A stretch of 64,000 nucleotides of DNA from a virus (IMGVR_UViG_3300017963_000230:1-64000), one strand, 5' to 3'. Numbered from the stretch's first letter, positions 4,514-59,383 are shown. Notes: generated by a model from the letters alone, not told the origin. Translations and numbers: made by a program.

Positions 4514-4591
4514 CTCATGATTACATAGCTTATGTGGAGAGGGCATAAGCTATGTGGTAAGTGCTACTGCACTGGGAAGGAGGTGAAGAAT

Positions 4592-40633: not shown

Positions 40634-40837
40634 TTAATCATTGTCCGGAATGTTGAATGACACTCTAATTAAATTGCAAATGGGTAGAAATATTTTATCG
40701 TCCCAATCTGCATCAGTGCTGGCAACTTTATCCTCGATAAAATCCAGCACATGGTCCATTAAATCCTTCAACATTTCTGGCGTCAAGAGACCAAACAAAA
40801 TACTGAACAGCTTTAAAAGGATATCCTTCATACTCAT
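40634..40837 (-). CDS. Hypothetical protein
   Basis: 4-nt overlap with the upstream gene; 67 aa. Confidence 0.6.
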   Translation of the reverse strand: MSMKDILLKLFSILFGLLTPEMLKDLMDHVLDFIEDKVASTDADWDDKIFLPICNLIRVSFNIPDND

Positions 40838-41190
40838 TCACCTCCTTTCTGTTTAGGTTGGATATGAAACGCCTTGAGTAGTACTTCTTGATTAGCCTTG
40901 ATAGTGTGTATGGTATCAAATTTCTCCTCCATTCTCGTAGCTATCCATCCAAACATCGTAATCGTTATACCTACTAATATTATCAAGACCCATCGTGGTG
41001 CCCTAGATTTAATATCTTCTCTCATTTCCTTCAAATCCTCCTTAGTTGCCGTTCTCTCGAATAATTGTTCTATATGTGCTTCATTTTTATGAATAGCAGA
41101 ACATTTGATATCATGAAATGCACAGACGGATCTATCTGATTCCCTCCTTATGTGTTTCCTTCTATCTTCTATTCCATTCCAATCACTCAT
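40834..41190 (-). CDS. Membrane protein with a C-proximal transmembrane helix (holin/XhlA-like layout, unverified)
   Basis: Helical N-terminal region, then WVLIILVGITITMFGWIA. 4-nt overlap with the giant gene. Confidence 0.55.
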   Translation of the reverse strand: MSDWNGIEDRRKHIRRESDRSVCAFHDIKCSAIHKNEAHIEQLFERTATKEDLKEMREDIKSRAPRWVLIILVGITITMFGWIATRMEEKFDTIHTIKANQEVLLKAFHIQPKQKGGE

Positions 41191-44100
41191 ACTAACTCAC
41201 CTACTTTCATCTTAACATCAACTTCCCATTTATTGTTAAGATTAGTCTGTATGCGAAAAGTGATTAGATAAGGATCTAAGTCTGGATCCCCGCTAACCAC
41301 TCTTTGACAGTATTTGTAAACATCTACCACATAGGGACTGCCTGACAATATATCAGTAACAGCATTGCCGTCCTTATCCTTAGCAGTTACGGTAGAGTTA
41401 TTGGTGTCTATAGTTTCTCCACTCTCGAGTACATCCTCAAAGTCACCATATGGCACGAAGGACTCCCAAGGTTGCTTGAAAAAGTTCTTTACTTTTGGTG
41501 TGCTGCCCACCTCAATCACCTCCTTAAATCCTAATGTTACAACATCTCTTTTATATCCTAACGTGACCTCGTCACGGGTAAATCCAATGTGGGGCTCCTC
41601 AGAGGGAGGGTATGTAGTCGTAGTGGTACTGTAAGTACTAGAAGTAGATGTGCTGGTACTTGTGGTTGAATAGGTGCTGGTTGTACTGAAGGTGCTGGTA
41701 GAAGTACTAGAAGTTGTTCCTGTTCCAGTAGTGCTCGTTGTGCTGAGAGTACTAGTGGTACTGAAGGTGCTTGTGCTTGTGCTTGTGCTGGTACTGGTAC
41801 TGGTTGTCGAGTAGGTACTTGTGCTGGTTGTCGAGTAGGTACTTGTGCTGGTACTGGTGCTGGTGCTTGTGCTTGTACTGGTGGTACTAAAGGTGGATGT
41901 GCTGGTACTTGTGGTAGAGTATGTGCTGGTGCTTGTACTGGTGCTTGTACTAGTAGTAGAGTAGGTACTGGTACTGGTACTGGTACTGGTGCTTGTGCTT
42001 GTACTGGTGGTCGAATAGGTGCTTGTGCTTGTGCTGGTTGTTGAGTATGTGCTGGTACTTGTGCTGGTACTGGTACTTGTGGTTGAATATGTACTAGTGC
42101 TGGTACTGGTACTTGTGGTTGAGTAGGTGCTGGTACTGGTACTTGTGGTTGAGTATGTGCTAGTGCTTGTAGTAGAGTATGTGCTGGTACTTGTGGTTGA
42201 GTATGTGCTGGTACTTGTGGTTGAGTATGTGCTGGTACTTGTGGTAGAGTATGTGCTGGTGCTTGTACTGGTGGTACTAAAGGTGGATGTGCTGGTACTT
42301 GTGGTAGAGTATGTGCTGGTGCTGGTTGTGCTGAAGGTAGATGTGCTGGTGCTAGTTGTGCTGAAGGTGGATGTGCTGGTGCTAGTTGTGCTGAAGGTAG
42401 ATGTGCTGGTGCTGGTACTTGTACTGGTGGTTGAATAGGTTGAAGTACTAGTGCTGGTAGTTGAGTATGTACTGGTGCTTGTACTGGTGCTTGTACTTGT
42501 GGTTGAATATGTACTGGTAGAAGTACTGGTGCTTGTACTGGTGGTTGAATAGGTTGAAGTACTAGTGCTGGTGGTTGAGTATGTGCTGGTACTTGTACTG
42601 GTACTGGTACTTGTGGTTGAGTATGTGCTGGTACTTGTACTGGTTGTAGAGTAAGTGCTTGTACTGGTACTGGTACTGGTACTGGTGGTTGAGTAGGTAC
42701 TGGTAGAAGTACTAGAACTGGTGCTAGTTGTGCTGAAGGTAGATGTGCTGGTGCTTGTAAAGGAAGTAGTGGTTGTAGAACTAGTGGTAGTTTCTCCTGG
42801 TTCTGTAGTCGTAGTGGTACTGAAGGTACTGGTAGTGCTATAAGTTGAGGTGCTGGTAGAAGTACTGGTGCTTGTGCTGGTTGTTGAATATGTACTAGTG
42901 CTGGTACTGGTGGTTGAGTATGTGCTGGTACTTGTGCTAGTAGATGTACTGGTTGTAGAGTAGGTGCTGGTACTTGTACTTGTGGTTGAGTATGTGCTGG
43001 TACTTGTACTGGTACTGGTACTTGTGGTTGAGTATGTGCTGGTGCTGGTGCTGGTGCTGGTGCTGGTTGTCGAGTATGTACTGGTAGAAGTACTGGTAGT
43101 TGAGTATGTGCTGGTGCTTGTGCTGGTACTTGTACTTGTGGTTGAGTATGTGCTGGTGCTTGTACTTGTGGTTGAGTATGTGCTGGTAGAAGTACTGGTG
43201 CTGGTACTTGTAGTAGAGTATGTGCTGGTGCTTGTACTAGTAGATGTGCTGGTTGTTGAGTAGGTGCTGGTGCTTGTAGTAGAGTAGGTGCTGGTTGTTG
43301 AGTAGGTGCTGGTAGAAGTACTGGTGCTGGTACTTGTAGTAGAGTATGTGCTGGTGCTTGTACTAGTAGATGTGCTGGTTGTTGAGTAGGTGCTGGTAGA
43401 AGTACTGGTACTGGTGCTTGTGGTTGAATAGGTACTGGTACTTGTACTGGTACTGGTACTTGTGGTTGAATAGGTTGAAGTGCTTGTACTAGTAGATGTG
43501 CTGGTGGTTGAATATGTACTAGTGCTTGTACTTGTGGTTGAGTATGTGCTGGTGCTTGTGCTGGTACTGGTACTTGTGGTAGAGTAGGTACTGGTACTGG
43601 TACTTGTGGTTGAGTATGTGCTGGTGCTTGTGCTGGTAGTTGAGTATGTGCTGGTGCTGGTGCTTGTAAAGGAAGTAGTAGTTGTGGAACTGGTGGTAGT
43701 TTCTCCTGGTTCTGTAGTTGTAGTGGTACTGAAGGTACTAGTTGTACTGAAAGTGCTGGTGCTTGTGCTTGTGCTGGTACTGGTACTTGTAGTAGAGTAT
43801 GTGCTGGTGCTGGTACTTGTAGTAGAGTATGTGCTGGTACTTGTGCTGGTACTGGTACTTGTGGTTGAGTATGTGCTGGTGCTTGTGCTGGTTGTTGAGT
43901 ATGTGCTGGTAGAAGTGCTGGTTGTTGAGTATGTGCTGGTAGAAGTGCTGGTACTGCTACTTGTGGTTGAATATGTACTAGTACTTGTACTTGTGGTAGA
44001 GTATGTGCTGGTGCTTGTACTGGTACTGGTACTTGTGGTTGAGTATGTGCTGGTGCTGGTGCTGGTTGTTGAGTATGTACTGGTGCTGGTGCTTGTACTG

Positions 44101-46142
44101 GTACTTGTGGTTGAATAGGTGCTGGTGCTGGTGCTGGTTGTTGAGTATGTACTGGTGCTGGTGCTTGTACTGGTACTGGTTGTTGAGTATGTGCTGGTAG
44201 AAGTGCTGGTTGTTGAGTATGTACTGGTGCTGGTACTGGTACTGGTACTTGTAGTTGAGTATGTGCTGGTACTGCTACTTGTGGTAGAGTATGTGCTGGT
44301 ACTAGTGCTTGTGGTAGAGTATGTGCTGGTGCTTGTGGTTGAATAGGTACTGGTGCTTGTGCTGGTACTGGTACTTGTAGTTGAGTATGTGCTGGTAGAA
44401 GTACTGGTACTGGTGCTTGTGGTTGAATAGGTACTGGTGCTTGTGCTGGTACTGGTACTTGTAGTAGAGTATGTGCTGGTACTGGTGCTTGTGCTGGTAC
44501 TGGTTGTTGAGTATGTGCTGGTGCTTGTGCTGGTACTTGTACTTGTGGTTGAGTATGTGCTGGTGCTTGTGCTAGTGCTGGTACTTGTGGTTGAATATGT
44601 ACTAGTGCTGGTGCTGGTGGTTGAGTATGTGCTGGTGCTTGTGCTGGTTGTTGAGTATGTGCTGGTACTTGTGCTGGTACTGGTACTTGTGGTTGAATAT
44701 GTACTAGTGCTGGTACTGGTACTTGTGGTTGAATAGGTTGAAGTACTTGTGCTAGTAGATGTGCTAGTGGTTGAATAGGTTGAAGTACTTGTGCTTGTTC
44801 TGGTACTTGTACTGGTAGTTGAATAGGAACTGGTACTTGTACTGGTACTGGTACTTGTGGTTGAGTATGTGCTGGTACTGGTGCTTGTACTGGTACTTGT
44901 ACTGGTAGTTGAATAGGTACTGGTAGAAGTGCTGGTGCTTGTACTGGTGGTTGAATAGGTTGAAGTGCTTGTACTGGTACTGGTGCTGGTTGTACTTAAG
45001 GTGCTAGTGCTGGTACTTGTTTGAGTGCTAGTACTGGTGGTAGAATAGGTACTAGTAGAAGTACTGGTGGTAGAATAGGTGCTGGTAGTTGAATAGGTGC
45101 TGGTACTTGTACTGGTGGTAGAATAGGTGCTGGTTGTTGAGTAGGTGCTGGTACTTGTACTGGTCGTAGTAAAAGTAGTGGTAGTGGTAGTGGTAGTAGC
45201 AGCCTCCCCTTCACACTCTAATAGGAACTCCAAAGTTTCTGAGGCTGTAAGTTCATCATCAGTGGTTATTAATATTTCACCACCAGGCAACCATACTAGT
45301 TGATAATTATTAGTACCTCCATACTGTTGTATATTACAAGTAGAAGGAGGTTCGGTAGTTGTAGTACTAGTTGTACTAAAGGTAGTGGTTGTACTGAAAG
45401 TGCTGGTGCTTGTGCTGGTAGTTGAGTAGGTGCTTGTACTGGTGCTTGTGGTAGAATAGGTGCTGGTACTTGTACTTGTTTGAGTGCTGGTACTTGTACT
45501 TGTTTGAGTGCTTGTACTGGTACTTGTGGTTGAATAGGTGCTGGTACTTGTAGTACTAAAGGTGGTAGTGGTAGTACTCGTGGTAGTGGTAGGCGAGGAA
45601 ATCGTGATCGTGGGCGTCTCGTCAAATGTCGATAAATTCGGGTCTTTAACCCTAACCTGTATCAAACCACCATTGACAACGTTCACAGAATTAATCTGGA
45701 GGCAGACCTCCATCTCACAGAACTCATTTCCCCCGAAGTCGATGGTGTCAGCAATCGTGTCGTTGGTTGCGCCGTCACTCAGCTCACCGAAATCTCCGCT
45801 GGACGATGCACCTCCGTCATAAACCCGCTTGTTATTGTCAAGGTCGCCGTCAGTATAGTAGGTGGTAGTCGAGAAGGCTATTTCGACTGATGTGGTTGTT
45901 ACTTGAGTCCAAGAGCCATAGCTTGACCCCGTGCCGGTGGAATCGTAGCGGTATTCCAGTTCGAACATCGGGTTAGCTTCCGCCTTGTTGTTCGACTCCA
46001 CAACGGCAAAACGGATGCGGAAGTTCTCATCAGTATTCTGCGTCCAATCATTATTAAGCGAGGCTTTCGTGGTTGCGCTACCAGGAACGGCATCGTCTTT
46101 GTAGCCCTGAAAGTCCTCCTGTGTATAAATTGGATTTGTCAT
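41187..46142 (-). CDS. Giant mucin-like Ser/Thr-repeat protein (1651 aa) with globular N- and C-terminal domains
   Basis: Uninterrupted ORF, ATGA-coupled on both sides. About 180-aa N-terminal domain, more than 1300 aa of STSTSTYSTT-type repeats, about 140-aa C-terminal domain. Confidence 0.85.
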   Translation of the reverse strand: MTNPIYTQEDFQGYKDDAVPGSATTKASLNNDWTQNTDENFRIRFAVVESNNKAEANPMFELEYRYDSTGTGSSYGSWTQVTTTSVEIAFSTTTYYTDGDLDNNKRVYDGGASSSGDFGELSDGATNDTIADTIDFGGNEFCEMEVCLQINSVNVVNGGLIQVRVKDPNLSTFDETPTITISSPTTTTSTTTTTFSTTSTSTYSTTSTSTSTQTSTSTSTQTSTSTSTYSTTSTSTSTYSTTSTSTSTFSTTTTFSTTSTTTTEPPSTCNIQQYGGTNNYQLVWLPGGEILITTDDELTASETLEFLLECEGEAATTTTTTTTFTTTSTSTSTYSTTSTYSTTSTSTSTYSTTSTYSTTSTSTSTYSTTSTSTQTSTSTSTLSTTSTSTSTSTSTYSTTSTSTSTSTSTYSTTSTSTSTSTSTSTYSTTSTSTSTSTSSYSTTSTSTRTSTSTSTYSTTSTSTSTSTSTYSTTSTSTSTSTYSTTSTSTSTSTSTYSTTSTSTSTYSTTSTSTSTYSTTSTSTSTSTSTYSTTSTSTSTSTSTYSTTSTSTSTSTSTYSTTSTSTSTSTSTYSTTSTSTSTSTSTYSTTSTSTSTSTSTYSTTSTSTYSTTSTSTSTYSTTSSSTSTYSTTSTSTSTSTSTYSTTSTSTSTYSTTSTSTSTSTSTYSTTSTSTSTYSTTSTSTSTSTSTYSTTSTSTSTYSTTSTSTSTSTSTYSTTSTSTSTYSTTSSSTSTSTSTYSTTSTSTSTYSTTSTSTSTYSTTSTSTSTSTSTYSTTSTSTSTYSTTSTSTSTSTSTSTFSTTSTFSTTTTTEPGETTTSSTTTTSFTSTSTSTYSTTSTSTSTYSTTSTSTSTYSTTSTSTSTSTSTYSTTSTSTSTYSTTSTSTSTSTSTYSTTSTSTSTSTSTYSTTSTSTSTSTSTYSTTSTSTSTSTSTYSTTSTSTSTSTSTYSTTSTYSTTSTSTYSTTSTSTSTSTSTYSTTSTSTSTSTSTYSTTSTSTSTYSTTSTSTSTSTSTYSTTSTSTSTYSTTSTSTSTSTSTYSTTSTSTSTSTSTYSTTSTSTSTYSTTSTSTSTSTSTYSTTSTSTSTYSTTSTSTSTSTSTSTYSTTSTFSTTTTTEPGETTTSSTTTTSFTSTSTSTFSTTSTSSSTSTSTYSTTSTSTSTSTSTYSTTSTSTSTYSTTSTSTSTSTSTYSTTSTSTSTYSTTSTSTSTSTSTYSTTSTSTSTSTSTYSTTSTSTSTYSTTSTSTSTSTSTFSTTSTSTSTFSTTSTSTSTFSTTSTSTYSTTSTSTSTFSTTSTSTSTYSTTSTSTYSTTSTSTYSTTSTSTYSTTSTSTYSTTSTSTSTYSTTSTSTSTSTYSTTSTSTSTSTSTYSTTSTSTSTYSTTSTSTSTSTSTSTSTYSTTSTSTSTSTSTYSTTSTSTSTFSTTSTSTSTSTSTSTSTYSTTSTSTYSTTSTSTSTSTSTSTFSTTSTLSTTSTTGTGTTSSTSTSTFSTTSTYSTTSTSTSTSSTYSTTTTTYPPSEEPHIGFTRDEVTLGYKRDVVTLGFKEVIEVGSTPKVKNFFKQPWESFVPYGDFEDVLESGETIDTNNSTVTAKDKDGNAVTDILSGSPYVVDVYKYCQRVVSGDPDLDPYLITFRIQTNLNNKWEVDVKMKVGELV
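41612..45595. repeat. Ser/Thr-coding low-complexity repeat tract with a ~909-bp super-repeat
   Basis: (a/g)gt(a/g)ct-type periodicity. The identical 24-mer ggtagtttctcctggttctgtagt occurs at 42786 and 43695. A non-repeat island lies at ~45199-45352. Confidence 0.9.
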
Positions 46143-46456
46143 TTAATGTACGGGTCTTTCCTTGCCGTATCGAATATTTTTTGCCATTGTTTAGAGGGTA
46201 TGGTGCGCCCCGCCTTCACGATTATTTCTCCCTTATAATGTGCCATGTAGTCAATTAAACCTATCATGTCCACACCCACCCAGAAGCCGTCTTGGAAAAT
46301 ATACCAGTCGCTACCGTTCTGGTGATATTTTCTCTCGGTGTGCAAATCATACTGAATAATGTCTTGCACGTCCCAGAACGGTGCCTCCCTAGGGGAGCCC
46401 TGTTCGTCGTTAAAGCTACTGTCGGTGTAATATATTTTCCATTTTCCTTTGCTCAT
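46139..46456 (-). CDS. Hypothetical protein
   Basis: 105 aa, ATGA-coupled to both neighbours. Confidence 0.7.
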   Translation of the reverse strand: MSKGKWKIYYTDSSFNDEQGSPREAPFWDVQDIIQYDLHTERKYHQNGSDWYIFQDGFWVGVDMIGLIDYMAHYKGEIIVKAGRTIPSKQWQKIFDTARKDPYIK

Positions 46457-50020: not shown

Positions 50021-50244
50021 TTTTTACCTCCCTTGTTAAATCTTGACTCAATCACAAAGTCAAGCAAATAGATTAATTTACGTTTCTGATAATCTTCCAA
50101 TTCCTCATCCTGTTGTATCTTCACCCTTATTTTATAGAATAACTTTCTGGTCAGGCAGAAGCGTCTGGGGGCATCCACTTCTTTACCCAATCCTCTATAC
50201 TGACCTTTTGACGCCTTTGAATATGATCTCTGTGGCGGCGACAT
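50017..50244 (-). CDS. Hypothetical protein
   Basis: 4-nt overlap with the downstream gene, but a 94-nt overlap with the 3' end of the GT-A gene. Confidence 0.35.
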   Translation of the reverse strand: MSPPQRSYSKASKGQYRGLGKEVDAPRRFCLTRKLFYKIRVKIQQDEELEDYQKRKLIYLLDFVIESRFNKGGKK

Positions 50245-51167
50245 TTCAGGTCTACATTCCTATAAATAGAGTGAAGAACTTCAGGTTTCCCCTTGAGACC
50301 CCCATTAATAGCTTTGAGTGCATAATCCCTTCCTCCATAAAGGTAACAAGCGATGAGCTTATTGCGTACATAGTCATCATAAAGGTAATGATAGCTTCTC
50401 CTTTCACCATGATGGAAACAAGTACCATTAGGATAGATCCATTTATTCATTCCCAAAACGGATAGGGTAAAATTAAAAAAGTTCTCACCTCCTCCATATA
50501 TACCAAGCTCAGGAGACCAACCTCCTAATGCTTCATATACTTTTCTTGATACGAGTACTCCACAACAACTCATGCAGGGAACCTCAAAAGGATCTCCTTT
50601 GTCTACACGACAGGGTGTGAATTTGTAGTCAAGTAACCCATGTTCAAACCACTCAACATTAAGTTTGTATATCAACCTACGAGATTCTAATATTTTATAA
50701 GTGAGTGGTAAGTGCATTGATCCGTTTATCTTTTCCTCATTCTGCTTATAGTACTGGAGCATACCATAAAGGCTGTCACGAGCAAGGATAACGTGTGAAT
50801 CCACAAAAAATAAATAATCACCAGTGCTGTGCTTAACACCCACCCTTTTGGCATTCCAATGGGACAGCCTTTCAGAATACTCTGCATGTTTCAACCATGG
50901 GTTCTGTTTCTGAGCTGTAGCTTTAATGGCTTCGGCTCCCTTATCCTCTTCCCAAGGTAGGTTCTGAGTCTTTCTTTGATTCACAAATTGATCACAATAA
51001 TTGTTTACTGCTACGATCTCGAAGTCTACCCTGTCACGCAGCTCTCCTGCGATGGATTGCAAAGTGAATATCAGCTGTGGATATTCATTTACATACGGTA
51101 TAATTACTGAAAGTTCTGCCATTTTATCGTATTCCTTTCTTCTCCTGCGAGATTGTCGTAAAGTCAT
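50151..51167 (-). CDS. GT-A glycosyltransferase with ppGalNAc-transferase-like motifs
   Basis: LSVIIPYVNE, YLFFVDSHV (DxH), GGWSPELGIYGGGENFFNFTLSVLG...CFHHGERR (compare WGGENLEISFRVWQCGG...VGHVFRK of animal GalNAc-Ts, recalled from memory). Confidence 0.6.
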   Translation of the reverse strand: MTLRQSRRRRKEYDKMAELSVIIPYVNEYPQLIFTLQSIAGELRDRVDFEIVAVNNYCDQFVNQRKTQNLPWEEDKGAEAIKATAQKQNPWLKHAEYSERLSHWNAKRVGVKHSTGDYLFFVDSHVILARDSLYGMLQYYKQNEEKINGSMHLPLTYKILESRRLIYKLNVEWFEHGLLDYKFTPCRVDKGDPFEVPCMSCCGVLVSRKVYEALGGWSPELGIYGGGENFFNFTLSVLGMNKWIYPNGTCFHHGERRSYHYLYDDYVRNKLIACYLYGGRDYALKAINGGLKGKPEVLHSIYRNVDLKCRRHRDHIQRRQKVSIEDWVKKWMPPDASA

Positions 51168-51244: not shown

Positions 51245-52120
51245 TTATTTATTTCCACTAAACAATTTCCTTCTGGGTCTTGCTGGAGTACTTTCAACAT
51301 CTGTGCTTGATACACTTTTAGAAGTGGTAGAAGATTTGGTAGAGGGTTTTCTAAATACGATACCATACTGACCAAAAAAATACCTGCGCTTGTGTATCAT
51401 ATCCCAGGACCCCGTTCTATCTAATAAATCAAATCCTGTACTCTTTGCCAAGTCTTCCATATACCACATTGACATCTGTATGTTAATGCCACGAACTTTA
51501 GTTTTAGGTCCGCCTTCACGATATCCTGGTCCTTCTTTCTCCTTTTCGATGTCTTTCAGTACCTCAGACCAAGGCTGGTGAAGAGCTGACCTTAGCATTC
51601 TGGAAAAGAAAACTACTCCAACTCCTCCTGGTTTCATAACACGGTAAACCTCTTTCAAATAATTTCTGATATTTTCCACCGTTCCTAAGTGCATAAACGT
51701 AACCCAACTGTGGACAAAATCAATACTCTCTTCTGGAAGTGGAATTGTTTTACCATCTCCTACTACTAATTCTACCTCTTCGTCCTTAATTCCCCTCTTA
51801 TTGAGTTCTTCCATAACAAAGTCGGCTTCTTCATGAACATCTAAACCATATGCCTTGTCAAAATACAATGAGGCAGCCAAAACTTGTCCACCACTTCCAT
51901 AACCTATATCTAAAGAAGTCTTGGTATTAAGTTTCTTAAGATACTTTTTGGCACTTGGAAGCATAAGCCTGTTGAAAACATCCTCTGCCTTTTCAAAAGC
52001 CGCATCCGTAGTTTCATTTTCACCTTTAGGTCCATCAAACCAACTAAAGAACTTATCTCTTCCCTGTTCCCTTAATAATTTAATCTCATTACGGAAACCT
52101 TCTGGATTGCAATAATTCAT
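51245..52120 (-). CDS. Class I SAM-dependent methyltransferase with a Ser/Thr-rich tail
   Basis: SLDIGYGSGGQ, VHSWVTFMHL, MKPGGVGVVFF. C-terminal STKSSTTSKSVSSTD. Confidence 0.65.
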   Translation of the reverse strand: MNYCNPEGFRNEIKLLREQGRDKFFSWFDGPKGENETTDAAFEKAEDVFNRLMLPSAKKYLKKLNTKTSLDIGYGSGGQVLAASLYFDKAYGLDVHEEADFVMEELNKRGIKDEEVELVVGDGKTIPLPEESIDFVHSWVTFMHLGTVENIRNYLKEVYRVMKPGGVGVVFFSRMLRSALHQPWSEVLKDIEKEKEGPGYREGGPKTKVRGINIQMSMWYMEDLAKSTGFDLLDRTGSWDMIHKRRYFFGQYGIVFRKPSTKSSTTSKSVSSTDVESTPARPRRKLFSGNK

Positions 52121-52121
52121 T

Positions 52122-53048
52122 TCATACCTCCTTCTTTAAATAATTTATCAATTTAATTGCAGACCTATCATAGCTAAAAGATTTCTTGAACTTTTCTCTC
52201 CCATTCTTCCTAACCCGATCTATCAATAAAGGATTATCTAATAACCATTTAAGTTTAGAATGAAAATTATGGGAGTTCCAAGATATATAATCTTCCCCAT
52301 CTACTAAATCTTCATTAGGCAGAAAGTGGATATCCTCCAAGGAACAATGAGCATACAGCAAAGCACCAGCTTTTAAGCAATCTGCGTAAGATCCTGAATA
52401 CTGTCCAAAACCACAGCAGCCCACACTTATTAGAGTTCTTCTTAATTCTTGAATATAATTCTCTCTACCTTCCACCCTTTTATAACTAACATCAGGAAGA
52501 TCTTTATTAACTTTCAATATTTTACGAACCGACTCCCTAACATAATGAGGATAATATTCAACTCCTATTTGACCATGCTTGAAACTTATTGAAATGTCCC
52601 TATCGAATTCATCTCTATACACCTTAGCATCAGACAAACTTAAACTGGTATTCAATATTACATAATCAATTTTAGGGTAGTACTTACCTGTAAATGCTTT
52701 TATAACTGGAGGGTAAGGAGTTATATCATCAAATCTAGTGTATCCATCCTTGTTACCATCATCATGGGTGTCGTGTAGTATCTTAACCCCTTTAAACTTT
52801 AAGAATATGTTATCAAAATAGTCCACCGTTTCCTTATTAAACTTTTTAGGATTGTACTCATCAGGAAAAGTTTCATAAATAAGTACATCATAATCTTCCT
52901 CTAACATACTTTCCTTAAATCTTGAAAAGTAAACTATGGAGGAAGATATATCTGGAAATAAATTCATTTCCCTTACTACATTCTCAAGATAATATCCATT
53001 CGCTCCTTTGTGAAAAAGATAAAGTACCTTCATTCTTCCTTTTCCCAT
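52122..53048 (-). CDS. Putative glycosyltransferase (CgeB / Glyco_trans_1_2-like C-terminus)
   Basis: CLKAGALLYAH...LVDGEDYISW...LKWLLDNPLLIDRVRKNGREKF resembles the GT-B C-terminal pattern. Confidence 0.4.
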   Translation of the reverse strand: MGKGRMKVLYLFHKGANGYYLENVVREMNLFPDISSSIVYFSRFKESMLEEDYDVLIYETFPDEYNPKKFNKETVDYFDNIFLKFKGVKILHDTHDDGNKDGYTRFDDITPYPPVIKAFTGKYYPKIDYVILNTSLSLSDAKVYRDEFDRDISISFKHGQIGVEYYPHYVRESVRKILKVNKDLPDVSYKRVEGRENYIQELRRTLISVGCCGFGQYSGSYADCLKAGALLYAHCSLEDIHFLPNEDLVDGEDYISWNSHNFHSKLKWLLDNPLLIDRVRKNGREKFKKSFSYDRSAIKLINYLKKEV

Positions 53049-53758
53049 ATCATAAAGTGAGCTTTATTACCTTTCTTTTTCCATCCATTCTTAACAGCCC
53101 ACTCCCTCCCCATATCTCGTATATAATTAGGCTCTCCTGGATGACCATATACCCCATACTTCCAATGCATCACCTCGTTTACCAATGCTTCATTACCCCC
53201 ATGAAATTGCTTTTCAGGATTACGATCGGTGAGTAGATGTTGGCGACAGGCTTTAACGAAGGATCCCTTTATAAGGGAAGGATGACCACAGAAACCTACT
53301 GCTTGTTTAATTTCCTCTGGGCATTCATAATAAGTGCCATTCCAGGGAAACCAACGATCCCAGTTCTTCATACCATCCTTGCCACACTTAAACTGAGGTA
53401 GGCGCAGAAGTGCAAGATCTTGATATGATTCTAATATTCCCATCATATGTCGTAAGTCCACCCTTTGCAACAATTCCCAATCGTCTTCCAGTTGTAAGAT
53501 CCAATTATTTTCTACCTGATCCCAACACCACTTAAAAGCATCACTAAAATTAGGCTCTGCTGGACAGCGAGCAATAACGGGTTCTGCGAACCAATAGCAT
53601 AATTCTATCGACTTATAGCTGTCCTCATTTACTCCTACAGGATCCACATTAATAATAATTCTAAAGTCATGGTTCCATAAAAGGTTTTCTAAAAAAGAAT
53701 TAAGAGTCTTGAATAGTAATTCACGCCTTCTGCAAGCTGTGATTGTAACATCTATCAT
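53030..53758 (-). CDS. GT-A-like protein, paralogue of 56816-57538
   Basis: ITACRRRELLFKTLNSF and ILQLEDDWELL, versus ITYQRPDYLGRTLTSF and VMHLQDDWLST in the paralogue. Confidence 0.4.
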   Translation of the reverse strand: MIDVTITACRRRELLFKTLNSFLENLLWNHDFRIIINVDPVGVNEDSYKSIELCYWFAEPVIARCPAEPNFSDAFKWCWDQVENNWILQLEDDWELLQRVDLRHMMGILESYQDLALLRLPQFKCGKDGMKNWDRWFPWNGTYYECPEEIKQAVGFCGHPSLIKGSFVKACRQHLLTDRNPEKQFHGGNEALVNEVMHWKYGVYGHPGEPNYIRDMGREWAVKNGWKKKGNKAHFMIWEKEE

Positions 53759-53766
53759 GATACCTC

Positions 53767-54396
53767 CTATAGATATCTTTGAGCCATTATATCAAACCTA
53801 CTTAATGCCTCATTGTAAATACTTCTATCCTCTTGATTTATTTCATCAAGTATTCTCCTGGTACGTCCACTAAACCTAAACTTCTTCCTACCAGGAGTTC
53901 TGTTGGCATGCATCTTATGTATGATTTCAAATCCCAAAATCTTTTCTATTATTCTCATACTTTCTTCATGCCTCTCTGTAATACCTACAAAAGCAAATTG
54001 ATCTAAATCCCCGCCTGTCATTAGATGCATATAGTTAGGAAATTGACGGGCGAACCAAAATATATTCTTTGATTTAATTCCCTCAGCCCCGTGCTTCCAA
54101 ACAGAGTAATAGGAAATCAATCTGTCTACAGGATCCCTAAGGAAAGTAATCATAGGCCACCCTAAATGCTTATACTTATTGGCTGTAAAATGACCAATAA
54201 CGCCTACATGGTAGTTTTCGTCAAAACCACCAGGGTAACCCTTTTCAGACCTATCAGTAAATTTTATCATTCCCAAGTATCTGTCTTTCCTAAAATGACG
54301 ATCCCTAAATATCTTATCTTTAAACTTTTCCCTTACCGTAATATTAAAAGAAGTGCCTCCACATTTAGGTATATGAACAAAAACAAACTTCCTCAA
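53767..54396 (-). CDS. Sulfotransferase-family protein
   Basis: FVHIPKCGGTSF (5'-phosphosulfate-binding-type loop) and FLRDPVDRLISYY (3'-phosphate-binding-type motif). Confidence 0.6.
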   Translation of the reverse strand: MRKFVFVHIPKCGGTSFNITVREKFKDKIFRDRHFRKDRYLGMIKFTDRSEKGYPGGFDENYHVGVIGHFTANKYKHLGWPMITFLRDPVDRLISYYSVWKHGAEGIKSKNIFWFARQFPNYMHLMTGGDLDQFAFVGITERHEESMRIIEKILGFEIIHKMHANRTPGRKKFRFSGRTRRILDEINQEDRSIYNEALSRFDIMAQRYL

Positions 54397-54992
54397 AACG
54401 GCTTTATCCTTTCAAAATACATCATGTTATCGTAATAGGCTTTGATTCCTTTCTTGTCTTTCCAAGGTTTTAACAGATTCTTTACTCTATCCTGAATAGA
54501 TTGCCCGTTAATAAAACCTCTATTAACAAACTTGAATACCCAATAGGTGTAAGGCTGACAGTTGACATGACCGTGACCTCCTTGTCCAGGAGGAGCGGCT
54601 GAAATTAGAACTCTTTTGGAGAGATTGGTTAAATTCTCAACAAATTGATCTGCACACTCTTCATCTATATGCTCTGCTACCTCTAAACAAATTGCAAGAT
54701 CAAAACTTAGACCTAAGTTAAGTGGAAGTCTCAGGTCTTTGATGAAAACTTTATCTTTAGGAACCAAAAGGTAGGGAACTACATTATCCGTACCCTCTAT
54801 CCCATAGCACATTATCTTTCTTTTGTCAAACTCTTTTATTAGATCTCCAACAGCACACCCTGCATCTATCACAGATTTAGGATCTAATACTTTACAAATA
54901 GCATCACATACAGCCTTTGCTCTCCACTCTAAACTGCTTCTTCTTGCAAAATATCTTCCTTTATACATTGTTCTTAAATCAATCATTTTCAA
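54393..54992 (-). CDS. Class I SAM-dependent methyltransferase
   Basis: VIDAGCAVGDL, DLAICLEVAEHI. Confidence 0.6.
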   Translation of the reverse strand: MKMIDLRTMYKGRYFARRSSLEWRAKAVCDAICKVLDPKSVIDAGCAVGDLIKEFDKRKIMCYGIEGTDNVVPYLLVPKDKVFIKDLRLPLNLGLSFDLAICLEVAEHIDEECADQFVENLTNLSKRVLISAAPPGQGGHGHVNCQPYTYWVFKFVNRGFINGQSIQDRVKNLLKPWKDKKGIKAYYDNMMYFERIKPF

Positions 54993-56118
54993 TATATTCC
55001 TTTATTAAAGGTTGAATATCTGGTTTAGGATTCTTTCTAATTACACGGAACAGTCTTTCCATTTCAGGTAATATTACATCATAAAGACCATTACGCTTTT
55101 GAAAATCATCATAACACCTCTGCTTTATTCCCTTTTTACGGAAGGTAAGGATTGCATTCCTAAGTTCATGAGCTATGCTGCTTATATCATCAGGGTTTGA
55201 AGATACATGACAAAAAGGATTATCTTTCCAAATAGAAGGACAATGGCGGGCAGTCCCCGCCAAGAGTATAGGAGTTCCACAGGCCAGCGATTCTATTGGA
55301 CCCCTATCATTCTGCCCGCCTTGTCCCATAAAGACAGAAAGGTGGCTTTGGTTTAAAACCTCAGCCACCTTTGTGCGGTGGAGCATACCAGGACAGTGTA
55401 CTGACAGACGGGCACTATTTATAGTTGAACCTATCTGGTTTGTTTTGACCCCGTGAGTTACACGACCTGGCATTATACAGTGGAGGTCTTGATTAAAAAG
55501 CCTTTTATACTCCGCGATGACCTCAATGGTTTTCCACTGACCTTTCTTGTCGTGGACGTGCGATGCACCAACGCAGATATCATACCTCTTCTTAATATCA
55601 GGAAGAGGCCGGAAGTAATCCGGATTTATAGGCTTTTTGAAGTAGTAAAAAAATCTACCTCGGGAATCATAACGATGCTTCCCATAAAGGTCGTCAAAAA
55701 CAACGTCCCAGAACTTCCACCGTGCCCTACCTGTATTGGCTGCGTAAACCAGCAACCAACGCCTTTCTTTCTTCATACGGTTTAAAAAGTTAAACCAACT
55801 TCTAAATCCACCTCTTGCCCAAATTATATCATCTGATCTCAAGAACTGATGTGCATATCCTATCTCAGGAACTACATAACACTTAACATGATTAAAATAA
55901 GTGGTATAACCTGGACTGCGAGAGGATTCGATAAAAATAAGAAGGTCATCTATTATACCCTGATTAAGCATTTCGCGGAGCATATACAGGTACCCTTCGC
56001 TAGGCAATCCATTTTCACCTGTAGCATAAAAATTATTAGATTGAGCGTGAGGATCCCAAGGCACATTAGATCCTTCTTGTGCTGCTCCATCACTATTAAA
56101 TAAGAAAATCAACCTCAA
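54979..56118 (-). CDS. GT-B fold glycosyltransferase-like protein
   Basis: GQGGQNDRGPIESLACGTPILLAG is a typical GT1/GT4 C-terminal pattern. Confidence 0.5.
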   Translation of the reverse strand: MRLIFLFNSDGAAQEGSNVPWDPHAQSNNFYATGENGLPSEGYLYMLREMLNQGIIDDLLIFIESSRSPGYTTYFNHVKCYVVPEIGYAHQFLRSDDIIWARGGFRSWFNFLNRMKKERRWLLVYAANTGRARWKFWDVVFDDLYGKHRYDSRGRFFYYFKKPINPDYFRPLPDIKKRYDICVGASHVHDKKGQWKTIEVIAEYKRLFNQDLHCIMPGRVTHGVKTNQIGSTINSARLSVHCPGMLHRTKVAEVLNQSHLSVFMGQGGQNDRGPIESLACGTPILLAGTARHCPSIWKDNPFCHVSSNPDDISSIAHELRNAILTFRKKGIKQRCYDDFQKRNGLYDVILPEMERLFRVIRKNPKPDIQPLIKEYIEND

Positions 56119-56828
56119 GGTGCAAACCTCTTAACCGCTTCATCATATATTATTAGATCTTTTTTATTGTATTTTCCGATTATATCTCTTTCCTTTTTAC
56201 TTATCTCCGGGTAGTCTCTAAAATTATAAATAGGATAAGCATTTGGAATAGGCATACCACTCCACTTACCAAATCTCTGTAAGCTCTCATCGTAATACTC
56301 TGTTATGCCTATAAAGTCGAATTTATCTAAATCTGTTCCTCCAATAAACTTACTAATAGGATTACGAGTGCCTTCGTACCTAGCAAAATCTATTAGAGTC
56401 ATCTCCTCCTTTATTATCTTTATGTGTATTTCTGGAGACCTGGCAGTAGTATTATGAATTTTAAGAGAATAGAACTGACTTGCAACCATATCTATAGGAT
56501 TCCTTACCCATGTGACCATAGGCAATCCTAAATAATCATACTTAGTATGATGAAAATGCCCATGTATTATGTCAAATAGAGTAGCATTAGGAGGAGGAGA
56601 GGCTTTTATTATATCAGGAATATACCTCTTACTTGTTTCATCATGAAGCACATTTAAAATACCATACCAATAAAACAGAAGGTTGCGAAAAGTAGTCCCT
56701 CCTGTTCTTGGTATGTGAATAGAAATAAACTTATGAATGATGGAGGATCTATCTTCCATCCTAGGATACCATTTCTTTAACTGTATAGAGAAAGGGGTAG
56801 GTTTCTTCTTTCTACTCATCTTACCCAC
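56115..56828 (-). CDS. Sulfotransferase-family protein (second copy)
   Basis: SIHIPRTGGTTF and WVRNPIDMVASQFY. Confidence 0.6.
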   Translation of the reverse strand: MGKMSRKKKPTPFSIQLKKWYPRMEDRSSIIHKFISIHIPRTGGTTFRNLLFYWYGILNVLHDETSKRYIPDIIKASPPPNATLFDIIHGHFHHTKYDYLGLPMVTWVRNPIDMVASQFYSLKIHNTTARSPEIHIKIIKEEMTLIDFARYEGTRNPISKFIGGTDLDKFDFIGITEYYDESLQRFGKWSGMPIPNAYPIYNFRDYPEISKKERDIIGKYNKKDLIIYDEAVKRFAP

Positions 56829-57538
56829 CTATCCTTTCCCCTAATTTCTGTTGTAGCCCTCTCTTCTCCTATGTGCATAAAACAGTTTCCTCTCACCTGA
56901 CCAGCAAGTAAACCTAATTTATGATATTTCTCCATCGCATCGTGCTCTTCAGTTACAGGTAGCATACGCTTTAAAACGGAGGTTCTAATGATAGTAGGAT
57001 TAAAGGTAAAATGAGCATTACCAATAACAATACGACAGTACTTATTGAACTTGGTATCCCATTTCTTCCATTTGATAGTCTTTTTAGAGATTCTATTTAC
57101 AATACTCACCTTGCTCCACGTAGCCGACCTAAGCCGTGCATACCCAACATCCTCCCTTTCTTCAAACAGTTGAAAGATACCTTTGTTATTTTTATATCCA
57201 GAGAAGTCATCCTCATAAAGGTAGTGAGTAATAGGCTCCGTACTTAACCAATCATCTTGTAAGTGCATTACAAGATCCGTACCTTCTTCTAAAAGCTCTT
57301 GATTTAAAAGGGAATAACCCCAAGCACAACCATGATTACTTTTAAGGGAAATAATCCTATCTATTCTCTCTTTAAACCTATCTAGAACTCTCATCGTAGC
57401 GTCATCCATGCCCTGCACAAGCACCACTACTGGTCTAAATTCTTCTAAGCAATCATAATTAACATTAAAGAAGGAAGTGAGTGTTCTGCCTAAGTAGTCA
57501 GGACGTTGGTACGTTATAATTCCCAAGGGCACTCTCAT
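56816..57538 (-). CDS. GT-A-like protein, paralogue of 53030-53758
   Basis: See 53030-53758. Shares the N-terminal beta-strand/Arg motif and the xQxxDDW motif. Confidence 0.4.
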   Translation of the reverse strand: MRVPLGIITYQRPDYLGRTLTSFFNVNYDCLEEFRPVVVLVQGMDDATMRVLDRFKERIDRIISLKSNHGCAWGYSLLNQELLEEGTDLVMHLQDDWLSTEPITHYLYEDDFSGYKNNKGIFQLFEEREDVGYARLRSATWSKVSIVNRISKKTIKWKKWDTKFNKYCRIVIGNAHFTFNPTIIRTSVLKRMLPVTEEHDAMEKYHKLGLLAGQVRGNCFMHIGEERATTEIRGKDRWVR

Positions 57539-57539
57539 A

Positions 57540-58124
57540 CTATTCCTTTATGAAAAAGCGAGTGGTACAGCTTTTAAGTTTAAGATGAGTATTAGCTGGA
57601 TGTCCTCTGAACATATCAAGCACCTCTTTAACGCAAGGATTCTCAGGATGAACTTCATATCCCCAATCATGAACACCCATCACATCTCCTTTATTTAACA
57701 GCTTACCATAATAACAGATTTCTCTGTCCTTGTTACCATTATCACAATAAAGGAGTTTCTTTTCAGGTCTTTCAAGTAAGGCTGACAGCATGATATTCTT
57801 CCTGTCTATAACATCTGACCTTATAAAGGATACCCTCTTACCAAAACCATGGTTTATAAGGAACTCCAAATCCTCCTTAGTGACTTTACCTTTAGCACGT
57901 ACTAAACTCGTCCTAGCATCCATATTGTCAAAGGTAAAAAGAGTAGCCTTAGGATCAGCCTCATGCAATAACAAGGTAAGTCCATAATAAAAAGTACCCA
58001 ACTCCACTATTACCTTAAACTTACTATCCCTTACCACCTTCTGTATTATAGGGAAGCTGTCGAGTTCATGACTGATAAGAGCCTTTAGTCCTTTAACTCT
58101 TTTACTCTCGTACCAATTTCTCAT
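57540..58124 (-). CDS. Putative SAM-dependent O-methyltransferase (TylF / Methyltransf_24-like)
   Basis: VIVELGTFYYGLTLLL and LLYCDNGNK. Confidence 0.4.
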   Translation of the reverse strand: MRNWYESKRVKGLKALISHELDSFPIIQKVVRDSKFKVIVELGTFYYGLTLLLHEADPKATLFTFDNMDARTSLVRAKGKVTKEDLEFLINHGFGKRVSFIRSDVIDRKNIMLSALLERPEKKLLYCDNGNKDREICYYGKLLNKGDVMGVHDWGYEVHPENPCVKEVLDMFRGHPANTHLKLKSCTTRFFIKE

Positions 58125-59383
58125 CTATATTTTAACTCCTGCATTGTGGGTGCGTAGTACTTACGGTAAAGATTATCATAATTATAGGTTCTGCGGCAGT
58201 GTGTCTTGATTTTCAATGCCTCATTCTCTTTAAATCTGCCTATGATGATAAAAGCTACATCACGAAAGAATTTATCTGGATCTTCAATCTTTAAATCATG
58301 ACTAAAGCTACCAAAGTCAAAATAGAGGCAATTGGCCTTAGTAATCTCTATTTGCTGATGCAAAGACTTATTTAGCACCATATAGGTTCCAGACAAAGCC
58401 GCCTCTGGTACTACAAGACCAAAAGACTCTTCCCTAGTGGGGAAGATAAACAGGTTGCTACAGAGAAACAGCTCACGGATCATATACTGGGGAATGCCTA
58501 CATCAAACTTGGGGCTCTCGAAGTCGCTGGTAAAGGCGAAGTCTACTTGATCAATCAATCCTTTCATTATCGCATGTTGTCTATATTTATCAGTATCTTC
58601 TTTCTGTTGTTTACCAGTAGCCCACTGATTAGCTACGAGAAGGAACACTTCTCTTCCATGAGCTTTAAGCTCAGCAAAGATACTCATTACATAACGCAAC
58701 CTTTTGGCTGCCAGTCGATCTACTGAAGCAGGTAGTAATTGAACGAATTCTGCACTCAGTATGCCTGGATATTTATCAATCAGCCTCTTGGTGTCGTCAC
58801 TAAATTCAAACCATGTACGGATATCTTTAATGTGAGGTATACAACGAACATCATGAATCTGCCCCTTATAGTGCTCTGCTACCCTAATACGGTCAGTTTC
58901 GTTTGGATAGATGAGTTTATGATTTGGACCGTATTCCCCTATATTCCACCAATCTCGTGGACCACCTGAAGGGATACTGTGTATCCAGTGCATCCACACT
59001 ACCTTTGGTAGATTGGAAGTAGCTTCCTTTATAGCTTCACCATAAGGCATATTCCAACCAATGAAAACAAAGTCATGAGTATAAACTACATCAAATTCCT
59101 CTTCACCGAGTATCTTGACGAACCTTTTGGCTGTCTCAATTTTGATAATCTTATGCTCGTCTGACAGGTCCCTCACAGAATGATAATCTTTGAGGTGAGT
59201 AAAAGGTATTTCCTTCCTTAATTGTACGTTACCTGGAAAGTCCTCTCCATGATACCTTTCATTTACAAAAAGGTGAACTTCATGGTCATAACGAGCGAGC
59301 ATCTCTACCTGATCCTTAACAATACCCGTAAGACTGTAACCTGGTTGAAACTCTTGAAATGTTGTCATGATTGCAATTTTCAT
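58121..59383 (-). CDS. GT4-like GT-B glycosyltransferase
   Basis: MKIAIMTTF...EVHLFV N-terminus and LFIFPTREESFGLVVPEAALSG (EX7E). Confidence 0.7.
   Translation of the reverse strand: MKIAIMTTFQEFQPGYSLTGIVKDQVEMLARYDHEVHLFVNERYHGEDFPGNVQLRKEIPFTHLKDYHSVRDLSDEHKIIKIETAKRFVKILGEEEFDVVYTHDFVFIGWNMPYGEAIKEATSNLPKVVWMHWIHSIPSGGPRDWWNIGEYGPNHKLIYPNETDRIRVAEHYKGQIHDVRCIPHIKDIRTWFEFSDDTKRLIDKYPGILSAEFVQLLPASVDRLAAKRLRYVMSIFAELKAHGREVFLLVANQWATGKQQKEDTDKYRQHAIMKGLIDQVDFAFTSDFESPKFDVGIPQYMIRELFLCSNLFIFPTREESFGLVVPEAALSGTYMVLNKSLHQQIEITKANCLYFDFGSFSHDLKIEDPDKFFRDVAFIIIGRFKENEALKIKTHCRRTYNYDNLYRKYYAPTMQELKYR

Follow-up and report, generated by a model that had tools for sequence, protein, structure and literature searches.

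What does a phage make with a protein of 1651 residues in which 74% of the positions are Ser or Thr? The open reading frame (ORF) that raises this question occupies positions 41187..46142 on the minus strand of IMGVR_UViG_3300017963_000230:1-64000, a stretch of viral DNA of 64,000 nucleotides that we call the window, and its product (689 Thr, 532 Ser, and 104 Tyr) consists of an N-terminal domain, two Ser/Thr repeats (R1 and R2) that together form a stalk, and a C-terminal domain. We propose, at a probability of roughly 0.55, that this protein is an O-glycosylated, length-variable, modular virion fibre of an uncultured tailed phage, anchored through its C-terminus. The glycosylation of the stalk, the location of the protein in the virion, the polarity of the fibre, and a second product made from an internal start are what we infer from the sequence.

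The mechanism that we propose is as follows. The stalk of ~1280 residues would be O-glycosylated in the host cytoplasm by enzymes of the phage late operon: a glycosyltransferase (GT) of family 2 (GT2) resembling the polypeptide N-acetylgalactosaminyltransferases (ppGalNAc-Ts) would start the glycans, a GT4 and a GT1-like enzyme would extend them, and methyl- and sulfotransferases would decorate them. Mucins extend by ~0.25 nm per residue, and the glycosylated stalk, as an extended mucin-like bottle-brush, could reach roughly 300 nm. The Gp77-like C-terminal domain, behind a connector of 9-residue repeats, would dock the fibre on the tail, and the fast-evolving, exchangeable N-terminal sandwich, which is immunoglobulin (Ig)-like, would be the distal adhesion module. 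The C-terminal domain would once have been a separate gene, fused by loss of a stop codon with its Shine-Dalgarno site and start codon kept; because both signals are kept, both products are probably made, and the locus would probably give a fibre-adaptor fusion together with a free adaptor, setting the number of adaptor positions that carry a fibre.

The Ser/Thr-repeat gene and its length

The ORF is open over its entire 4956 nt, with no stop or frame shift, and its ATG overlaps the stop of an upstream 105-residue gene. Residues 1-182 (45597..46142, minus strand, as are the coding features that follow) form the N-terminal domain, an all-beta Ig-like sandwich from a large unnamed family. R1 (residues 183-264; 82 residues; 45351..45596) is separated by a non-repeat island (residues 265-318; 54 residues, including Cys269 and Cys310; 45189..45350) from the much longer R2 (residues 319-1515; 1197 residues; 41598..45188), and the C-terminal region (residues 1516-1651; 41190..41597) comprises a connector of about three 9-residue repeats, GFTRDEVTL, GYKRDVVTL, and GFKEVIE (residues 1516-1544; 41511..41597), and the Gp77-like C-terminal domain, the proposed virion (tail) anchor (residues 1545-1651; 41190..41510). 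Ser and Thr account for 1153 of the 1279 residues of R1 and R2 (~90%). R2 is built of 99 units of the form STT(ST)nY/F, of 6-18 residues and punctuated by Tyr or Phe, of which the 14-residue form (n=32) and the 10-residue form (n=25) recur. Two 21-residue EPGE linkers of identical sequence, STTTTTEPGETTTSSTTTTSF, lie 303 residues apart within R2, linker 1 at residues 805-825 (43668..43730) and linker 2 at residues 1108-1128 (42759..42821).

A preliminary description of the window, made from the sequence alone, had recognized a single long Ser/Thr-repeat protein here, with hierarchical STSTST(Y/F)STT units, a linker encoded by an identical 24-mer at 42786 and 43695, and a Cys-containing island, and each of these features is confirmed. 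A further claim, that the tract contains a 909-bp super-repeat, did not hold. The offset of 909 is outside the top offsets of the DNA autocorrelation; ungapped identity at this offset is high only at ~42730-42990, that is, over the linker and its flanks, and beyond the two linkers the match extends only ~100 nt to either side; self-BLAST identity is about 73-76% whatever the offset; and in a relative, L001, the spacing of the linkers is 216 residues rather than 303.

Is the gene more than an accident of one assembly? L001, an 11-kb contig from the Joint Genome Institute (JGI), contains an intact ORF of 1514 residues with the same domain order: N-terminal domain, R1, Cys island, R2 with two EPGE linkers, connector, and C-terminal domain. 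The architecture recurs in L001, in L003 (1016 residues), and in L076 (781 residues), and in L006 and L007 the repeat is joined in frame to the C-terminal domain; these five contigs differ in sample of origin and in assembler. Identity between L001 and the window rises from 28.6% in the N-terminal domain to 58.5% in the island, where both Cys are kept, and 73.8% in the C-terminal domain. The EPGE linker is found elsewhere in L001 (two copies) and L011, and connector-type 9-residue repeats in L003 (FERDSETLV, six times), L004 (EFYRSEVTK, three times), L005, L011, and L012. The Ser/Thr patterns themselves differ widely between relatives, to the point of near-pure poly-Ser in L004, and in L003 the island has shrunk to EPPSTEVEDVVIDFLPE. 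Judged from these comparisons, the 1651-residue gene is real and conserved.

Several observations on the relatives stand by themselves. At ~1900 of L006 the Ser/Thr ORF changes frame inside the repeat, and this shift is either real or the result of a single-base error in the assembly. L011 (1454-3326), a more distant relative, keeps the linker motif TTTTTEPGET; the globular island that interrupts its Ser/Thr tract is larger, and its two overlapping Ser/Thr ORFs suggest another frame shift. Ahead of a Gp77-like ORF in L022, a pair of adjacent ORFs (1144-4529) both end in ~14 Thr and then SS (…TTTTTTTTTTTTTTSS); these ends may be short glycosylation tags rather than stalks.

Such genes are readily missed. 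Read on the opposite strand, the repeat is open in a frame rich in Val and Leu (on the plus strand at 42127-44736 of the window and on the minus strand at 559-4185 of L001), and in the JGI annotation of L001 antisense Val/Leu-rich ORFs are called over the repeat and the real gene is cut to its last 111 residues. A search with the C-terminal region returned eight database proteins of 107-195 residues, seven of which look like small stand-alone genes. The eighth, P0001 (195 residues), is a partial call that still holds the end of the Ser/Thr tract. The other seven, P0002-P0008 (107-111 residues), proved to be truncated calls inside longer ORFs, and a separate gene for the C-terminal domain in close relatives was therefore rejected. 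Searches of the large protein catalogue likewise recovered C-terminal fragments only, and the gene-position collection holds no record of the exact 1651-residue product or of P0002. Because antisense ORFs are called in their place, Ser/Thr scaffolds may be largely invisible in protein catalogues; gene callers routinely miss such genes, and catalogue-based surveys will under-count this class of gene.

The tract was expected from the outset to vary in length, and the comparison with L001 supports this, for every landmark-to-landmark block differs: R1 is 82 residues in the window and 195 in L001, the distance from the island to linker 1 is 547 and 540, that from linker 1 to linker 2 is 303 and 216, and that from linker 2 to the C-terminal region is 397 and 248. 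How does such variation arise? The 14-residue units share position-specific codons (TCA for Ser at position 1, ACC for Thr at position 11 in 29 of 32 units, and ACA for Thr at position 13 in 23 of 32), and their mean pairwise DNA identity is 0.82, compared with 0.69 expected from random synonymous codons. Recent local tandem duplication was considered as the source of the array and rejected: unit identity is flat with distance and just 6 of 496 pairs of 14-residue units are identical, and the array therefore does not derive from recent local slippage. Unit DNA similarity is 0.759 across the window's two Ser/Thr genes (the second is described below), 0.759 and 0.758 within them, and 0.66-0.67 in comparison with L001. 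Paired linkers agree at 62-63 of 66 nt in the same genome and at 50-54 of 66 nt between genomes, and the punctuation residue is mainly Tyr in the window (104 Tyr, 34 Phe) and mainly Phe in L001 (91 Phe, 18 Tyr). The higher likeness of units and linkers within a genome points to homogenisation within genomes, including between the two Ser/Thr genes, and the length of the stalk probably changes as imperfect DNA repeats recombine.

The longest exact direct repeat of the tract, 98 nt, has its copies at 44635..44732 (upstream) and 42025..42122 (downstream), and it bears on an alternative that we consider unlikely, namely that the length of 1651 residues is a product of assembly and that the true gene is shorter, for example 781 residues, or was mis-joined in the repeat. 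Two European Nucleotide Archive (ENA) contigs, both independent assemblies of this phage, were reached through a 100%-identical GT2. L076 (84,945 bp) is an independent assembly of a strain ~99.5% identical, and its fibre gene encodes the 781-residue form: it shares its first ~1532 nt and its last ~951 nt exactly with the gene of the window, is short by exactly 2610 nt, and shows no other difference. The junction lies within the 98-nt repeat, the upstream copy of which marks an edge of the difference, and both linkers are gone. L077 (87,115 bp) corresponds to window positions 61122-44241 with one mismatch and breaks off inside the repeat at 44241. These facts, together with the frame shift in the repeat of L006 and the lack of any other record of the exact product, are what an assembly error would leave behind. 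Against it, L077 agrees base for base with the first 1.9 kb of the fibre gene, the ORF is intact from end to end, and L001, from another lineage and another sample, has both linkers and blocks of comparable length; its 1514-residue, two-linker form speaks for a genuine long form. The difference in L076 is either a natural recombination polymorphism or a short-read assembly collapse. Short-read assemblers collapse repeats more than they expand them, and L076 is therefore the likelier artefact, if either is. The second Ser/Thr gene also differs in length, encoding 996 residues in L076 and 1050 residues in L077, whose sequence there matches the window.

Glycosyltransferases beside the repeat

What would glycosylate the stalk? 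The GT2 gene (50151..51167, minus strand; Pfam GT2) encodes 338 residues, or 323 as otherwise called, and the best sequence matches of the enzyme among solved structures are human ppGalNAc-T10 (E 7e-6) and T12; for its orthologue in L005 they are ppGalNAc-T10 and T7. The alignment spans the DxH site and the GGEN-type Gal/GalNAc-T motif, such that FVDSHV of GT2 aligns with FLDSHC of ppGalNAc-T10 and LGGWSPELGIYGGGENF aligns with LGGYDPGLEIWGGEQYE. Asp123, His125, Gly226, Gly227, Glu228, and Asn232 are invariant in 30 members of the GT2 family. A profile of this family ranks ppGalNAc-T10 first (5.6e-5); a second ppGalNAc-T, matched over the C-terminal half, comes next, ahead of TarP, which is matched over the N-terminal half. 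The enzyme has no membrane anchor. On the strength of these similarities, we propose that GT2 is the putative initiator of O-glycosylation of the stalk. For GT4, by comparison, a sequence search of solved structures at E<=0.01 returned nothing, GtfA included.

The family comprises 679 proteins at E<=1e-5. In 185,579 GTDB species genomes it has seven matches, all of them on contigs of metagenome-assembled genomes (L081-L087), several of which are phage-sized; four carry the label Deltaproteobacteria or Desulfobacteraceae, which is a faint hint of host or habitat, too weak for a host call, or else a binning artefact.

Ser/Thr tracts accompany this enzyme elsewhere. Among 67 IMG/VR loci, and as a raw count with no background control, a tract within 10 kb of the GT reaches at least 40 residues at 30 loci, at least 100 at 22, and at least 300 at 11, and at 29 of the 30 loci the tract shares the strand of the GT. 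Ser/Thr is the dominant type of low-complexity tract near GT2: tracts of the residue pairs AG, DE, KR, NQ, EK, GS, and AS occur at 0-1 loci each, the PT, AT, and Gly/Thr tracts (six loci each) probably reflect the same T-rich tracts, and the LV (10 loci) and AV (six loci) tracts are the antisense image of Ser/Thr tracts. Seven of these loci hold a Gp77-like ORF, and in the distant relatives L005/L010, L011, and L012 an orthologous GT2 accompanies a Ser/Thr fibre gene and a Gp77-like gene.

In the window, the enzyme belongs to a minus-strand late block that runs from ~64 kb down to 40.8 kb, in the order 464-residue protein, 1056-residue protein, GT4, proteins of unassigned function, GT1-like enzyme, methyltransferase, sulfotransferase, methyltransferase, GT2, a 1029-residue LamG protein, and the 105-residue, 1651-residue, and 118-residue proteins. 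The glycan cluster beyond GT2 (51245..59383) comprises GT4 (58121-59383), the GT1-like enzyme (54979-56118), the two methyltransferases (51245-52120 and 54393-54992), the sulfotransferase (53767-54396; a possible second one, at 56115-56828, matches less strongly), and four or five proteins that matched no family, and it is flanked by two Ser/Thr-repeat genes on the same strand. The second of these (59445..62615, minus strand), just upstream of the cluster, encodes the 1056-residue protein, in which three globular domains are joined by two linkers of STTSTSTSTY units; the second domain is of the F5/8 type C (NedA-like galactose-binding; 34.5 bits) and the third begins after TTTTTEPPP.

Could these enzymes have another substrate? 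An unglycosylated, disordered stalk that serves as a spacer, with the transferases acting on host lipopolysaccharide or capsule (serotype conversion) or on phage DNA, is improbable on the evidence below. The sole PHROG match of GT2 is a weak one to a GtrB-like O-antigen conversion family (E 0.008), and the window carries a DpdA-like queuine tRNA-ribosyltransferase, a marker of DNA modification; DNA and host serotype are both known targets of phage GTs (PMC12619734). In addition, no Ser/Thr tract lies within 10 kb of the GT at 37 of the 67 loci. The arrangement of the window argues for the stalk as substrate, however, since the cluster is situated in the late block between two Ser/Thr genes and apart from the replication genes, GT2 aligns through its catalytic motifs with protein-O-GalNAc transferases, and Ser/Thr predominates among the tracts near GT2.

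The two ends of the protein

What anchors the fibre, and by which end? In the podophage GP4, gp77 is a fibre-tail adaptor and defines PF23148 (Zheng et al. 2023, J Mol Biol 435:168258, as cited in PMC10925440). Gp77 is the top Pfam match for the C-terminal domain of the window and for seven of nine relatives scanned. Of the homologues, P0005 scores 27.4 bits, P0007 26.5, P0008 25.3, and P0006 24.3 against a gathering cut-off of 27, and the relatives cover profile positions 1-79 of 84 at 24-27 bits. As with gp77 of GP4, the domain is ~85-105 residues long and is in relatives a small separate protein beside fibre genes; unlike gp77, the domain in the window is fused to the C-terminus of the fibre and scores below the cut-off. 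A profile of the domain located the relatives in IMG/VR, where the single sequence as query found nothing, and tblastn against 50,697 phage records gave no match.

The relatives fall into fused and split forms. The domain is fused in frame in the window, L001, L002, L003, L006, and L007, and L008 has the same junction sequence with a run of N just upstream that interrupts the frame. In L004 and L005 a Ser-rich or Ser/Thr protein stops after the 9-residue connector repeats and is followed by a separate gene of 103 or 112 residues, an arrangement shared by L011 and L012. At the junction of the window, the consensus Shine-Dalgarno sequence AAGGAGGTGAT (41515..41525, minus strand), written in the codons for K-E-V-I and present as a single exact copy in 64 kb, ends 4 nt before a GTG (41510-41508). 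The same site is conserved in the fused relatives, and in L005 and L012, where the gene is separate, it serves as the ribosome-binding site. In the window, L001, L002, L006, L007, and L008, the junction reads TTT AAG GAG GTG ATT GAR and then GTG GG, in frame, such that AAGGAGGTGATTGAR followed by GTG is invariant in these six fused-type junctions; in L003, also fused, GAG GAG GTG ATA CAA (GAGGAGGTGATACAA) precedes ATG. In L012 the junction is split by a single stop codon without change of frame (AAG GAG GTG GTT TAA ATG, that is, AAGGAGGTGGTT TAA ATG), and in L005 the stop overlaps the start (AAGGAGGTGATC TA ATG). Relative to an L012-like ancestor, the fused genes differ by one base of the stop codon (TAA to GAA or CAA). 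Flanking conserved residues vary synonymously between relatives and AAG-GAG-GTG is constant; from genome codon usage, the chance of AAG-GAG-GTG with a GTG start is ~0.0085 per lineage. We infer that the fused locus still yields a free 107-residue adaptor by internal initiation at the GTG. The junction series, from overlapping genes through one in-frame stop to a fusion with the Shine-Dalgarno site and start kept, illustrates a route by which structural genes can fuse.

The N-terminal domain has a different history. It has no match in Pfam or PHROG, its profile finds no sequence relative among solved structures, and both an IMG/VR scan with the single sequence and a word-indexed protein search came back empty. 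In contrast, an exhaustive HMMER scan of 1.84 billion representatives gave 590 homologues at E<=1e-3, of which 146 reach E<=1e-10, and significant full-length matches place the domain in an unnamed family of ~170-residue beta-sandwiches with invariant Trp33, Gln35, Arg42, Arg44, and Glu143. Of 169 full-length copies, 73 form the N-terminus of their protein and are followed by diverse repetitive stalks, including poly-Ser. The domain also occurs in cellular surface proteins, in tandem arrays (up to 21 copies, in one protein of 6179 residues) and alongside LamG and peptidase C25 domains. An AlphaFold2 (AF2) model from a 34-sequence alignment is an all-beta sandwich with a predicted local distance difference test score (pLDDT) of 90.4, and a single-sequence model of residues 1-330 is uninformative (pLDDT 41.6). 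Foldseek matches of the domain in PDB and BFVD are weak, the best being a CLIPPER domain of a fibrillar adhesin (E 5.8e-4), followed by RhoGDI-type Ig sandwiches.

This domain was apparently acquired together with its neighbor. The 105-residue gene (46139..46456, minus strand) is translationally coupled to the fibre gene, and the pair recurs on L078, an unrelated phage contig of 51% GC: the N-terminal domain is 53% identical to P0012, a stand-alone protein of 189 residues, and a 102-residue homologue of the 105-residue protein (39% identity, E 1e-18) precedes P0012 with an overlapping start. The recurrence of the pair indicates an exchangeable cassette. The G+C content at third codon positions (GC3) is 0.58 in the N-terminal domain and 0.557 in the adjoining 105-residue gene, both in the top 1-2% of 105-codon windows across the 64 kb (mean 0.38, sd 0.079), and is ordinary in the 1029-residue upstream gene (0.334) and the C-terminal domain (0.397). 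Thus, of the earlier claim that the N-terminal domain and the two genes upstream of it are G+C-richer, the part concerning the domain and the 105-residue gene stands and the part concerning the 1029-residue gene does not; the composition break is real but small, covering ~0.86 kb (45597-46456), and is attributed to import from a GC-richer phage. The repeat, at 46.5% G+C, also departs from the 40.6% of the window, mostly because of its amino acid composition and further because of a preference for codons ending in C (GC1 0.01, GC2 0.91; ACC, AGC, and TAC are favoured, unlike in the rest of the genome). The mosaic fusion suggested by the preliminary description is therefore supported at both junctions, by the L078 pair and the divergence from L001 at the N-terminal one and by the separate gene in relatives at the C-terminal one.

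Which end is distal? Most characterised tail fibres attach through their N-termini, and a fibre of reversed polarity, with the N-terminal sandwich on the virion and the C-terminal domain distal and receptor-binding, would agree with this custom, with the frequent N-terminal position of the sandwich in fibre-like proteins, and with the borderline nature of the Gp77 match. We consider it the less likely orientation by a wide measure, since the C-terminal domain is conserved and the N-terminal domain is divergent and exchanged, the free small C-terminal protein of the relatives fits an adaptor and not a fibre tip, and the N-terminal domain occurs in the tandem arrays of cellular surface proteins noted above. 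We therefore retain the N-terminal domain as the proposed distal adhesion module. It is very improbable, finally, that the (ST)nY repeats fold without glycans into an ordered beta-structure presenting Thr-x-Thr faces, for example a beta-solenoid or a surface that binds ice or minerals: Ser and Thr alternate strictly with an aromatic residue every 6-18 residues (mostly 10 or 14), AF2 draws long strands through R1 at low confidence, and L001 replaces Tyr with Phe or Leu as a packing residue would be replaced, but pLDDT in R1 is poor (below 50 to about 66), the irregular unit length of 6-30 residues is hard to square with a solenoid, and the Ser/Thr patterns of relatives, such as the poly-Ser of L004, are quite different.

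A number of results weigh against a glycosylated, C-terminally anchored fibre. No part of the 1651-residue protein matches a PHROG structural family, nor does it match a fibre or receptor-binding family in Pfam or PHROG, and the fibre role is argued from the position of the gene at the end of the late block. R2 contains 4 Pro in 1197 residues, and the Pro/Thr/Ser domains of mucins differ in this respect. The similarity of GT2 to the ppGalNAc-Ts is modest by sequence (7e-6) and by profile (5.6e-5), at ~25 bits; TarP, a teichoic-acid GT, scores 3e-4 on the N-terminal half of GT2; Pfam places the enzyme in generic GT2 families only, with Glyco_transf_7C weak in 2 of 30 members; and a ricin-type lectin domain is missing, GT2-type domains being all that Pfam found. 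The 37 GT loci without a tract and the uncontrolled nature of the co-occurrence count also speak on this side, as does the lack of a GT of the GT2 family in the 15-20 kb seen of L003 and L004. At the C-terminus, the domain of the window scores 16.9 bits against the 27-bit cut-off of PF23148, a profile search found it no sequence relative among solved structures, and conservation of the Shine-Dalgarno site could stem from amino acid constraint on FKEVIEV and shared ancestry.

Genomic setting and comparison with known systems

The fibre gene is the last of the late block and lies just before a gene for a 118-residue protein with one transmembrane segment (40834..41190, minus strand), the start of which overlaps the fibre-gene stop. 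A membrane protein of 116-118 residues follows the C-terminal domain in L001 (4624-4980), L003, and L005 (10349-10699), again with overlapping start and stop. The 118-residue protein has no significant similarity to its equivalent in L078 (E 0.058), and its possible roles are those of a holin or of a factor in assembly. An endolysin-type DUF5675 gene is nearby in L078, and a sequence near the L004 locus we take, reading by eye, to be D-Ala-D-Ala carboxypeptidase-like. At the other end of the late block, the 464-residue protein (62597-63991, minus strand) has an N-terminal chitobiase/beta-hexosaminidase C-terminal (Fn3-associated) domain, which is carbohydrate-related. A replication module makes up the plus-strand half of the window and encodes a family A polymerase, helicases, single-stranded-DNA-binding protein, exonuclease, SbcCD-like proteins, and the DpdA-like transglycosylase (queuine tRNA-ribosyltransferase-like; 23015-24202, plus strand; PHROG 887, E 8e-37). 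This last enzyme suggests that the phage DNA carries 7-deazaguanine modifications. The 64-kb window holds no tRNA genes. Megablast of 25 kb against the 50,697 phage records gave no match, and no DNA polymerase in these deposited genomes exceeds 26% identity to that of the window; the lineage is therefore uncharacterised.

With what known proteins can the fibre be compared? The serine-rich repeat proteins (SRRPs) GspB, Fap1, and SraP, adhesins of Gram-positive bacteria, consist of a short Ser-rich repeat, a non-repeat region, a very long repeat, and a C-terminal anchor, and their Ser and Thr are glycosylated in the cytoplasm by co-encoded dedicated transferases, including GT4-type enzymes (PMC6973325, PMC7948813). 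The likeness to the protein of the window (R1 of 82 residues, island of 54, R2 of 1197) is one of layout only. The N-terminus, MTNPIYTQEDFQGYKDD, has no hydrophobic segment and no signal peptide, LP.TG occurs nowhere in the 1651 residues, and no SecA2/SecY2-like (accessory Sec) match was found among the neighbor proteins scanned; because it lacks a signal peptide and an LPxTG motif, the protein is not an SRRP. Furthermore, the anchor is a phage Gp77-like domain, the island is just 54 residues, the repeats are Thr-rich with periodic Tyr, and the candidate initiator is a GT2 with DxH rather than the GtfA/GtfB of SRRPs.

The resemblance to animal mucins lies in the long Ser/Thr tandem repeats of variable number, and that of GT2 to the GT27 ppGalNAc-Ts (PDB 2d7i, 6pxu, 6s22) in the DxH metal site and the GGEN-type motif. 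Unlike those enzymes, GT2 has ~320 residues, would be cytoplasmic and not Golgi-located, and has neither a type II membrane anchor nor a lectin domain. The fibre is not a strict mucin, because the repeat is almost free of Pro, and so falls outside the Pro/Thr/Ser-repeat definition, and because the enzyme lacks a lectin domain. By analogy, the 1651-residue protein probably works like both an SRRP and a mucin.

Among phages, mycobacteriophage GTs encoded beside structural genes glycosylate virion proteins, and the glycans are carried on short C-terminal extensions of capsid and tail-tube subunits (Freeman et al. 2023, Cell Host Microbe 31:1216, as described in PMC12619734). Taken as an analogy, this is the closest phage precedent. 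Here, in comparison, the presumed substrate is a dedicated Ser/Thr stalk of ~1280 residues together with a second Ser/Thr protein, and the cluster is larger and includes methyl- and sulfotransferases. We found no report in the literature of a mucin-like phage fibre or of a ppGalNAc-T-like phage enzyme, and to our knowledge phage virion glycosylation has so far been shown only on the short tails of mycobacteriophage capsid and tail-tube proteins. Ig-like domains, for their part, occur as additions to phage structural proteins. Likewise, two products from one structural gene are known from the A1 readthrough protein of Q-beta, 10A/10B of T7, and G/GT of lambda. The proposed locus would resemble these systems in giving a fixed ratio of short to extended subunits, and would differ from them in its putative route, which is internal initiation at the kept Shine-Dalgarno site and GTG in the fused ORF; in split relatives such as L012, the putative route is readthrough of the single in-frame TAA.

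We suggest more broadly, though we hold this wider view somewhat short of even odds, that widespread uncultured phages may possess self-contained cytoplasmic mucin-type O-glycosylation, with ppGalNAc-T-like initiation, extension, and methyl- and sulfo-decoration, and may build fibres hundreds of nanometers long on Ser/Thr scaffolds that gene callers have missed, with fibre copy number set by a fused gene that still makes free adaptor. If our proposal is correct, the phage of the window makes a dedicated mucin-like fibre and encodes a multi-enzyme glycan pathway to go with it. Such a fibre would change the view of how phages stick to hosts, particles, and mucus, and of how they avoid proteases and non-productive adsorption, and the pathway would constitute a compact route to dense protein O-glycosylation in the bacterial cytoplasm that would be useful in glyco-engineering.

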